The notes under the pieces are model-generated. The model was not told the DNA's origin. It searched no databases and saw nothing but the letters and a program-made list of their open reading frames with translations. Below, in pieces: positions 52,501-55,152 of a stretch of 64,000 nt of DNA. The translations under genes were made by a program, and so were the position numbers. Source of the DNA: Vermamoeba vermiformis (Eukaryota); NCBI GenBank assembly GCA_045837725.1, contig JBEWZL010000216.1, positions 62,001 to 126,000 of the forward strand. Direction: 5' to 3'. Each line of letters starts with the position of its first letter. The first letter of the stretch is position 1.

Positions 52501-55152
52501 CATTACAGAACAACTCTAGGGATAATATTTTCCTGAGCACTACTATTGTCAGATTTCTAGGTAAGCACGATCGATTACGCAAAACAAATCCAAAAAGTTT
52601 GCGATGAGCGCCCAAAAACCGCTTCGCTAAATATAGCGCTTAAGTAATTAATTAATGCAGCCTAATTTTGGATTTTACTCTAAAAGCTCATTTTGCCACA
52701 TTTAGGTAATTTTGCTGAATGGTTTGAAAAAAATCCTTCTGCAGCGACTTTTCTCGAAGCAACCATCAAATACATCATGTACTTCCTCACTAGCAATAAC
52801 GCCGATACTAGCTTTGTCGCCGGTACGTTTCGCCGATGCTAAGGCGGAAAAAAGAAAGAAATTTCTAACTTTAGATTTTTTGCTCGATCTAGCACAAGCG
52901 CTGCGGAAATTTTGTTTTAAATGCGAGTCGGGATTACTGCCTGTGCTGAAGATTGTGTTCGAGCAATATACGTCCATATTCCCAAAGATCAAGGTCGAAG
53001 ATCGAAGTCTCATCGTGGAAGGTTTTGTTCACTTGATCTACAAACTGCCTGCAGATCAAGTCACCGGTGCTTTACAAATGATCATCTCGCCCATTCTAGC
53101 CAACATACAGCAAATCAACAGTCAACCTACAGTAAGTCTATTCATACAAAAAAAGTAAAGCACGCGATCGGATCACGTACTAACGAACTATTTTTATGCG
53201 TTGTTAGTCAACTGAACGACATAGATTGCTATTACACGAGTTGAACTGCTTGACAACAACAATGTGGGACCATCAAGTTGACGGGCCGAGCAATCGTGTC
53301 ATCAAACGATTGGCGAAGAAGTCGAGTACGACAACTGCTCCGTTAGTCAGTGCGACTGGAGCACCTCATCCGCTCGTCATTCTCTTCACTAATAGCACAC
53401 TGGGTACTATACTATCTCAATTGCACGATGAATTCATTAACAATGGATCCGAAAGCTATTTGGTCCAGGTACGAATCCGGATTTGCCCCAAGAACCCTTA
53501 ATTACACCGTTAAATATTATTAAGATTAACCCTTACGTGATCCTACGACTAACCATGTCATATTTACTAGAGTTTGTATAATATATACATAGCAGCCCTG
53601 CGAACGTCGGAAAGATCCTTTGCCCCAGTTTTGCCGGCGTTAATTCCTAAAGTCATGTCGTATTACTTCAAGCAGCCTAACAACAGCTCGTTGGATTTAT
53701 TGCGCGAAGTCATCGAGTACTTTGGTGCCGATGAAGACAAAAGCCAAGCGTTTTCAGACCTGCTGCTCAATGTCTCTCAGAAAACATTCGAATTGCTCCA
53801 AAAAAGTAAGCAACATTATACAATTTTTTGCTAGTATCGCCAAAATATTCTCAAGTCAAATTCGTCGAATTCTTTTCATTTATCAAGGTCCGAGGCTACT
53901 CGATCGGTTGCGGGAAGTTATTCTTTGCTTAGTAAGTGGTGACCCGAACACTCAGCTGCGGAGCGTCTCGGGCACGACCACACTAACAAGAATGCACCGC
54001 TTCCCGTCCGATCAGCGAAGTTAAGCTTGTTCAGGCCTTCTTAGTACTGGGGTAGGAGACTACCTGGGAATCGGAGGTGTTGTGCTCTCATCTTTTTTGC
54101 TTTTTATCCTTCTCCATAATATCAATCGAATCTTCCCTTACAAACTGAACAAGCTTAACCCAAGCCAGATCGAAGTTTTAAATTTTGCTTTTTGCCAACT
54201 GATTGCGTTTTTATACTTACCTTAATCGTATCGTAGGTGTTGCAGCGCATTTAGAACTCGTCCAAGGCTATTTAGAACTGCTGTACCAAGCAATGAAGAC
54301 CAATGCGAACCTCCTTACCACGCAAGCTACATCCGCTATTCCGAGCACTGCACTGCAACTCTCCGTGCAGGCTTTGACTTCCAAAGGTACCTAATACCCT
54401 CTATAGTATATTGATCCTCAATTGACCAGCTGTCATGTTTTTTGAATTCGTGGCGCGATCCGATTTAACGTTGCTTATTTTTAGATGTCGAAACCGTTGG
54501 AGCAGCATTGTTGTATTTGAACGTATTGTTGCTCGGGCCACACCGCACAATTCCTGCTTGGACTCAATACATTCAAACAGCGTTGCAGCATCAGGCTAAT
54601 ACGCTCGTCAAGGCTCTTCTAGGCGCGATCGTGCAACACGCAGGACACTTCAAATTGCTACCAAAACAAGCTGAATTATTGTTCCGACTAAGTAAGTACC
54701 TTATATTGCGTATTAGTGGTATACGAAACGCTAAATCGTTCCGGATGTAGTTCAAGATTACCGACCAGTAATTGAACCGACGCTCATCGCGATTTTCGCC
54801 GAAGAAGGCTTCCTACACGAAGAATTTTCGAAGGAAGATAAGCAAACAGTCCTAAGCATATTTTTAAAGTAAGTCGGAGTTCGGATGTCAGTTTGTCTTG
54901 TCGTAATTTTTTTAACCGTTACGGATTACAATCCACCAGTATTTTACGAGTTAACGCAATAACTAAGTACTTTAAATTGGATAATTTGAAATCAGCTATT
55001 ATTAGTGCCTATAGAGTCTTTATAAGGATTAGTCTAATCTCGATCTGGCCAGGTTGAAGCCGTTCGGACGATTCAAGTCTTTTATTACGGACTTTACGGA
55101 CATATGCAATAAGAAGATGAGCTTCGATGCGCTGCTAAGCTATTTAATGTAA
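49560..55152 (+). CDS. Importin-beta family karyopherin, importin-13/transportin-SR type
   Basis: AIFALYDP...KQEANQWLMKFVSTPEAWDI, VQFVAAQSL, VRVRLCLAVAA, LSLLPEE, SELTLPFW, WQTAESIYF; about 20 exons; stop 55150-55152. Confidence 0.85.
53970..54088 (+). rRNA. 5S rRNA, single copy inside intron 53806-54236 of the karyopherin gene
   Basis: 119 nt; terminal helix GGGCACGAC/GTTGTGCTC, CCCGTCCGATC, GAAGTTAAGC (box A), TTAGTACTGG...GACTACCTGGGAA; T6 terminator at about 54093. Confidence 0.95.

Follow-up and report, generated by a model that had tools for sequence, protein, structure and literature searches.

5S rRNA genes are usually viewed as tandem arrays, which is the arrangement in nematodes, or as linked to the rDNA, and Neurospora is a further fungus, beside the fission yeasts, with a dispersed 5S rRNA gene family. 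A review describes 5S dispersal among eukaryotes as 'very occasional' (PMC10946416). In S. osmophilus 13 centromeric 5S genes make up 13% of a nuclear set of about 100 copies, and the same paper reports that the dispersed 5S families of fission yeast undergo gain, loss and recombination between copies (PMC10085805). Small Pol III genes are also known from introns of protein genes. In a C. elegans survey, 264 of the 608 tRNA genes (43%) are nested in introns, usually one per intron, with a fast turnover between species (PMC3342880); this survey covers tRNA, snRNA and snoRNA genes and the word 'rRNA' is absent from its text. A Pol III-transcribed MIR within Polr3e's first intron lies antisense to its host, acts as a roadblock and lowers host expression, while in the sense orientation no measurable effect is reported (PMC5358760).

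Here we analyse a 5S rRNA gene that lies in sense orientation within an intron of a karyopherin gene, in a 64-kb stretch of DNA (64,000 nucleotides) from Vermamoeba vermiformis, which is called the window throughout. The family to which it belongs resembles the dispersed fungal 5S families in its many unlinked single genes with differing flanks, its identical or nearly identical coding part and its pseudo-copies. The window copy differs from them in being intronic, as the accounts of the fungal families, in the parts available, make no mention of copies in spliceosomal introns. As with the nested tRNA genes of C. elegans, an intron of a protein gene fully encloses a small Pol III gene whose promoter is internal. 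The MIR of Polr3e is likewise a Pol III unit in a Pol II intron, and its study offers an experimental approach to the effect of orientation, but the MIR is antisense whereas the 5S gene of the window is sense. Intronic snoRNA genes also encode small structured RNAs and lie in sense in introns of housekeeping genes, but they have no promoter or terminator of their own and are processed from the intron, whereas the 5S gene of the window possesses a T6 terminator and an upstream element shared with other copies. A full-text literature search, which saw its sources in part and is no proof of absence, returned no description of a 5S gene in a spliceosomal intron.

The 5S gene and the intron that carries it

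The host gene and the features around the junction are as follows.

49560..55152, plus strand: importin-13/transportin-3-type beta-karyopherin gene with about 19 exons and about 18 introns (tblastn of P0001)
53571..53805, plus strand: about exon 15, immediately before the 5S intron; identity to P0001 714-791 in 78 of 78 residues
53806..54236, plus strand: GT..AG spliceosomal intron of 431 nt (about intron 15), phase 1, from the spliced RNA joint and the reading frame
53970..54088, plus strand: intact 5S rRNA gene of 119 nt
54237..54386, plus strand: about exon 16, immediately after the 5S intron; identity to P0001 793-842 in 48 of 50 residues, and spliced to its neighbours on either side in an X5 contig

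P0001 is a protein of 982 aa (JGI source) that is 96% identical over the query exon, and in the tblastn search its exons are collinear on the window from Met1 (49560) to the stop codon (55152). Membership in the domain families of the host (IBN_N, Xpo1 and the TNPO3/IPO13 TPR, expected over about 950-1000 aa) was assessed on this 96% identical relative, for which Pfam returned Xpo1 (62.3 bits), TPR_TNPO3_IPO13_3rd (30.0 bits) and IBN_N (25.8 bits), all above the cut-offs; the exons of the window alone gave sub-threshold matches to Xpo1 and TPR_4th. The best solved relative of P0001 is Importin-13 (2x19_B, E 1.1e-51, residues 8-970), with transportin-3 at 1.7e-21, and a protein atlas also assigned it to the karyopherin family. 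The Pfam families and the Importin-13 relative of P0001 bear out the karyopherin identity that had been proposed from the sequence, the host being a beta-karyopherin. About 47% of the host gene span consists of introns. As the longest contig of P0001 measures 3126 nt with a CDS of 2949 nt, against a genomic span of 5593 nt in the window, P0001 must have been called on a spliced template.

The intron with the 5S gene starts with GTAAGC and ends with GTAG, and it is the largest of the host, the next one measuring about 300 nt (51060-51357). The codon split over it into A and GT yields the Ser found as residue 792 in P0001, which reads FELLQK-S-V(T/A)AHLELVQ uninterrupted over the junction. For the region 53208-54872 a total of 24 runs was listed and four of them were aligned: X21 and X23, both raw RNA-seq under the same species label and taken from two samples within one study, X5, contigs under another organism label, and X2, DNA contigs possibly from the source sample of the window. 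A joint from 53805 to 54237, skipping exactly 431 nt with GT..AG ends, was found in two reads with two starts in X21, in five reads with five starts in X23 and in one 855-nt contig of X5 spliced over four consecutive exons, and it was absent from the DNA run X2, as expected. The neighbouring intron 53466->53569 is spliced in 12 reads of X23, and the introns 54384->54483 and 54691->54751 are spliced in the X5 contig. Exons of X21 and X23 differ by 5-10% from the window (diverged relatives) and those of X5 by about 2%. Since these RNAs come from relatives, the exon junction is not only real but also conserved, and since they join 53805 to 54237 exactly, both flanks of the intron belong to one mRNA and are not separate genes. 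The 5S gene lies wholly between the splice sites of joined host exons, as defines a nested gene, and on the host strand, with 164 nt separating it from the 5' splice site and 148 nt from the 3' splice site. The Rfam strand, the exon map and the RNA joint together bear out the sense orientation in the largest host intron given in the preliminary description.

The 5S gene itself is a full-length match to RF00001 at 53970-54088 on the plus strand (104.7 bits against a gathering threshold of 38, E 6.6e-22 for the 64-kb window), covering positions 1-120 of the 120 model positions without truncation, so that the predicted intact gene of 119 nt is indeed present. Its alignment to the covariance model (cmscan) carries no marks of non-canonical pairs, and the MFE fold of the isolated 119 nt, at -41.6 kcal/mol, shows the closing helix I and two arms, that is the three-armed 5S shape. 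At gathering thresholds Rfam gave two matches in the 64-kb window, this 5S gene and a tRNA gene at 46753-46825 on the minus strand, and neither a second 5S nor any other rRNA. A permissive Rfam search (E up to 1) of 49400-55300 returned the 5S gene alone and no 5S fragments elsewhere in that region.

The gene has the majority sequence of the family, and an identical 5S with the same 104.7 bits is present on a metagenome contig described below (L001). Among the best 40 of 77 variant rows, none in any of the four runs is a variant of at least 10% within 53970-54088. The RNA depth, summed over both strands, is highest on the 5S, its peak bin reaching about 74 (X21) or about 36 (X23) as compared with at most 13 on exons. 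With no listed variants inside it and with the highest RNA depth upon it, the 5S gene of the window matches the bulk of expressed and genomic 5S and is not a diverged pseudogene, which the RNA-seq and contig variant rows both show. As the coding part is identical to that of the bulk expressed 5S, the internal control region is probably intact as well, whatever the internal control region of this family is; in type-1 units this region comprises an A box, an intermediate element and a C box and is bound by TFIIIA.

Flanks of the 5S gene and its dispersed family

The following features surround the 5S gene within the intron.

53912..53969, plus strand: upstream flank common to 5S copies (loose-end rows, with related forms in the metagenome contigs L001 and L002)
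53939-53951, plus strand: core upstream element GTGACCCGAACAC, positions -31 to -19
54093..54105, plus strand: Pol III terminator-like runs, T6 at 54093-54098 and T5 at 54101-54105, read from the sequence
54145..54159, minus strand: 15-nt stretch that is a perfect antisense match to 5S nt 51-65 (54020-54034), from a repeat search

In the DNA contigs of X2, 216 contigs were aligned, most of them on the 5S and many with unlike flanks. Their summed word depth reaches 1.1-2.6 x 10^5 on the 5S and about 360 on the flanks; at 54089 the total depth is 65,728 and that of the letter found in the window is about 262, equal to the unitig depth of 262. This suggests about 250-700 dispersed copy-equivalents of the 5S gene, where summed k-mer depth is not a copy number and is usable as an order of magnitude alone. 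Compared with the dispersed fungal families the family is apparently larger, and it shares a distinct element at -31 to -19. It also includes pseudo-copies, as one 5S variant in X2 has an internal deletion of 48 nt. The gene had been called solitary, which holds locally, as there is neither a tandem array nor linked rDNA in the window, and fails for the genome, as the gene belongs to a dispersed family on the order of hundreds.

The unit common to the copies reaches from about -58 to +136 (about 195 nt). In X2, GTGACCCGAACAC stands in the exact register of the window in seven of the eight listed upstream consensus rows with loose ends at 53962-53968, and related forms (AAGTAGTGACCC...) precede the 5S in L001 and L002. 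A T-rich/GCT stretch farther upstream and GCGTCTC right before +1 are common to the window and L001, and no TATA-like sequence is evident upstream of the 5S. The element at -31 to -19 is probably an upstream promoter element, judged from this conservation in sequence. Within the window GTGACCCGAACAC has one match, and at least one match was obtained in 44 of 100 shuffles; a match in the window alone is therefore unremarkable and the weight of the motif comes from its recurrence at other loci only.

Downstream of the 5S end follow CATC, T6, G, C and T5, so that the T6 run begins after 4 nt, at the place where a T6 terminator had been noted. The first differences from other copies lie just outside the gene (54089 C>T and 54090 A>T): the C at 54089 and the A at 54090 are specific to the locus of the window, and its CATC trailer before the T run differs from nearly all other copies, which have TT... 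there. The atypical trailer could affect 3' processing or could merely be the mark of a separate locus.

The antisense 15-mer sits 110 nt downstream of its 5S counterpart inside the same intron. Its score was reached by none of 1000 shuffles and none of 770 chunk-strands of the window, and its two arms are the only two matches in the window at up to two mismatches; given these controls it is not a chance match. Template switching could have left it as a scar, or it could be what remains of an inverted fragment. An antisense likeness of 53902-53940 to 5S nt 8-44 was rejected as chance, as its score is also attained in 195 of 2000 shuffles and by 71 of 770 chunk-strands. Among 11 families of short direct repeats none convincingly brackets the 5S unit as a target-site duplication. 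We also rejected an origin as a 5S-derived SINE or retro-pseudogene, as the 5S is complete and tailless, has its upstream flank from about -58 in common with other copies and lacks bracketing repeats. The RNA fold of the intron has z = -2.3, which is unsurprising for an intron containing a 5S and from which we draw no conclusion.

Nested Pol III genes at other loci

One further Pol III gene is present in the window.

46753-46825, minus strand: tRNA-Asn(GTT), the only tRNA gene of the window (Rfam), with its own T7 run

It lies in sense within a frame-compatible GT..AG interval of 218 nt (46890->46673, minus strand), between an exon with ankyrin repeats and an exon with the Gly-loop of a kinase, the latter in a frame without an upstream Met. 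The best protein found for this ankyrin-kinase intron is a 43% identical kinase and no close relative spans the junction, and the nesting of the tRNA gene accordingly rests on frame and domain logic.

An exact 29-nt pattern of the 5S matched two metagenome contigs, L001 and L002, and had no match in genome_contigs or viral_contigs. L001 carries an exon whose end reads CYASDITR directly before GTAAGT, and behind it, on its strand, a tRNA-Ile gene and an identical 5S. This exon aligns to P0003, an 84% identical Xaa-Pro dipeptidase of 443 aa, up to residue 269, with 174 residues remaining, and it reaches position 96 of 208 of the Pfam M24 profile only. On L002 the 5S is truncated to about its first 52 nt, its upstream element is duplicated, and it stands 161 nt after a PIP5K exon that ends in AAG directly before GTAAGC and reaches position 188 of 288 of its profile only. 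Because these protein and profile matches end partway, the hosts on both contigs must continue past the 5S.

A Pol III element is sense-intronic at four of four loci (five genes or fragments), the intron being shown at one of them and deduced at the other three. This is suggestive of recurrent sense nesting of Pol III genes in the lineage and is not significant, since the first locus was chosen as intronic and orientation alone accounts for (1/2)^3 at the other three. With introns making up such a share of the host gene, most of the genome's non-coding DNA may well be intronic. The nesting had been described as unusual; this is weakened by the three further loci of the lineage at which it is seen or deduced and by how common intron-nested Pol III genes are elsewhere (PMC3342880).

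Explanations for the intronic copy and their meaning

We consider it probable that the locus is an independent Pol III 5S gene of a large dispersed family, housed in sense in an intron of a compact, intron-rich and gene-dense genome whose gene structure is fungus-like. The unit would be a self-contained Pol III type-1 unit, with the upstream element at -31 to -19, the internal control region in an unaltered 5S and the T6 terminator. Pol II transcribes through it and the spliceosome removes the whole 431-nt intron, while Pol III would make 5S RNA from the intronic copy independently of the host. The sense orientation would be tolerated because a nested Pol III unit running with its host does not hinder it, as reported for a nested MIR (PMC5358760). 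Among 38 RNA reads crossing 54089 (26 in X21 and 12 in X23, both runs being from diverged relatives) one has the C of the locus; as the copies are identical, mature 5S is not assignable to the locus of the window. With hundreds of 5S copies, many may be silent, and a possible though clearly less favoured explanation is that the window holds such a copy, an intact recent or gene-converted duplicate that Pol III does not transcribe, for instance owing to chromatin or Pol II traffic, and that has no function of its own. Any single one of hundreds of copy-equivalents is dispensable, the family does contain pseudo-copies (the truncated 5S of L002 and the 48-nt deletion variant of X2), the trailer at this locus is atypical and the nested tRNA genes of the large families of C. 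elegans turn over fast (PMC3342880). Against it, the gene has zero differences from the majority 5S and has kept both upstream element and terminator, whereas a neutral copy, unless very young or subject to homogenisation, would be expected to gather changes.

Three further explanations would place the host or the assembly at the centre. A Pol III complex on the intronic 5S might act on the karyopherin gene by modulating its elongation, splicing or chromatin and so couple nuclear-transport capacity to Pol III activity, which would suit a host that is a transport receptor and has a precedent in the lowered host expression caused by an intron-nested, Pol III-occupied element. We regard this as improbable, as that effect is confined to the antisense orientation, the sense one having 'no measurable effect' (PMC5358760), while the 5S of the window is sense; moreover, the hosts of the other nested loci, a kinase, a prolidase and a PIP5K, are unrelated, which argues for opportunistic placement. 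That 5S RNA is instead cut from the Pol II pre-mRNA intron, in the manner of intronic snoRNAs, is very improbable. It would agree with the sense orientation and with reads from a poly(A) library in which the 5S is joined to the upstream flanks found at other loci, showing that longer transcripts do include some 5S copies, but the unit is equipped with a terminator of its own and with the upstream element of the family, the RNA depth on the flanks of the intron is about zero (in runs from diverged relatives) and we know of no pathway for the excision of 5S from pre-mRNA introns. Least credible of all, and scarcely to be considered, is a mis-assembly that collapsed a repeated 5S into the karyopherin intron. 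The 5S is indeed a high-copy repeat at which unitigs break, but X2 unitigs link unique intron sequence to both edges, one (53781-53959) running from the exon and stopping 10 nt short of the 5S, the other (54085-54237) leading from the end of the 5S into the next exon; as X2 may be the source sample of the window, they are not independent support for the assembly. The spliced reads skip exactly 431 nt, which fixes the exon ends and not the content of the intron.

Beyond the independent Pol III gene that we favour at this locus, a wider and rather doubtful extension is that Pol III genes, hundreds of 5S as well as tRNA genes, are systematically housed in introns and co-oriented with their hosts as a genome-wide architecture. 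It could have arisen through preferential spread of the unit of about 195 nt (-58 to +136) into transcribed DNA, or through sole survival of sense-intronic copies in a compact genome, and the antisense 15-mer could mark a template switch at a site bound by Pol III.

Both dispersed 5S genes and Pol III genes nested in introns are already known, and the locus of the window is a well-documented further example of them, a clean and RNA-verified case rather than a new mechanism. Its interest is modest unless a genome-wide count reveals a real sense-intronic bias. For annotation it means that gene callers should keep the karyopherin gene unsplit. Hundreds of single 5S copies, some of them in spliced introns of essential genes, illustrate how widely an internally promoted Pol III gene may spread without harm to its hosts. 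If the sense-intronic bias holds true genome-wide, this organism would offer a natural system for co-directional traffic of Pol II and Pol III, and for the way in which the identity of 5S copies is maintained without arrays.

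A tRNA-Asn gene in an apparent ankyrin/kinase gene

The intron of the importin-13-like karyopherin gene with its 5S gene would not be the only such arrangement in the window, as we located a tRNA gene within a candidate intron on the opposite strand:

46753-46825, - strand: tRNA-Asn(GTT), with a T7 run
46673-46890, - strand: GT..AG interval of 218 nt, frame-compatible, holding the tRNA-Asn(GTT)

This interval is flanked by an ankyrin-repeat exon on one side and by an exon with a kinase Gly-loop on the other, both belonging to one apparent gene, relative to which the tRNA lies in sense orientation. 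As judged from the sequence, the tRNA-Asn(GTT) appears to be a second Pol III gene nested in an intron of the window, its host gene being an apparent one. A search for a close protein relative to confirm the ankyrin/kinase junction found none.

5S copies on two metagenome contigs

Two metagenome contigs found by the 5S pattern, L001 and L002, carry an intact and a truncated 5S, respectively:

L001 388-461, - strand: tRNA-Ile(AAT), within L001 1-600
L001 13-131, - strand: 5S identical to the window copy, within L001 1-600
L002 1319-1370: truncated 5S (first ~52 nt), in the region L002 1158-1596

On L001 an exon of a Xaa-Pro dipeptidase, with the end ...DITR followed by GTAAGT, lies upstream of both genes. 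Because P0003, a related dipeptidase of 443 amino acids (84% identical), extends 174 residues beyond the end of this exon, we place the tRNA-Ile and the 5S in one intron, whose length would be about 567 nt or more. On L002 a PIP5K exon end (AAG followed by GTAAGC) precedes the truncated 5S by 161 nt, the PIP5K profile match stops at 188/288, and the element upstream of the truncated 5S is tandemly duplicated.

Sequence around the 5S and its variants

Two further features belong to the 5S of the window itself:

53912-53969: 5S-family-specific upstream flank
54020-54034 (5S nt 51-65) and 54145-54159 (downstream intron): perfect 15-nt inverted repeat

The inverted repeat was non-random in two controls. 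X2, the DNA contigs matching best and possibly the source sample of the window, lacks 10 intron nt at 53840 (depth 278/278, one unitig) and is otherwise the same sequence, the difference being an indel between the window assembly and X2. In the region 53970-54105, X2 also holds a genomic 5S variant with an internal 48-nt deletion (joining 54015 to 54064). Among RNA-seq runs from diverged relatives, two poly(A)-tailed 5S reads were present in X21. In X23, reads leave the 5S at 54051 or 54076 (five each) and continue into common unrelated sequence; they may come from a family of chimeric or SINE-like transcripts that begin with the 5S.

Within the upstream flank, GTGACCCGAACAC at -31..-19 relative to the 5S start is common to seven of the eight listed flanks from other 5S loci, with the register kept. 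The repeat search (family D2) revealed a similarity between ATTCTTTGCT at 53920 and CTTTTTTGCT 3' of the 5S; ATTCTTTGCT may be a relic of an earlier tandem-unit spacer.
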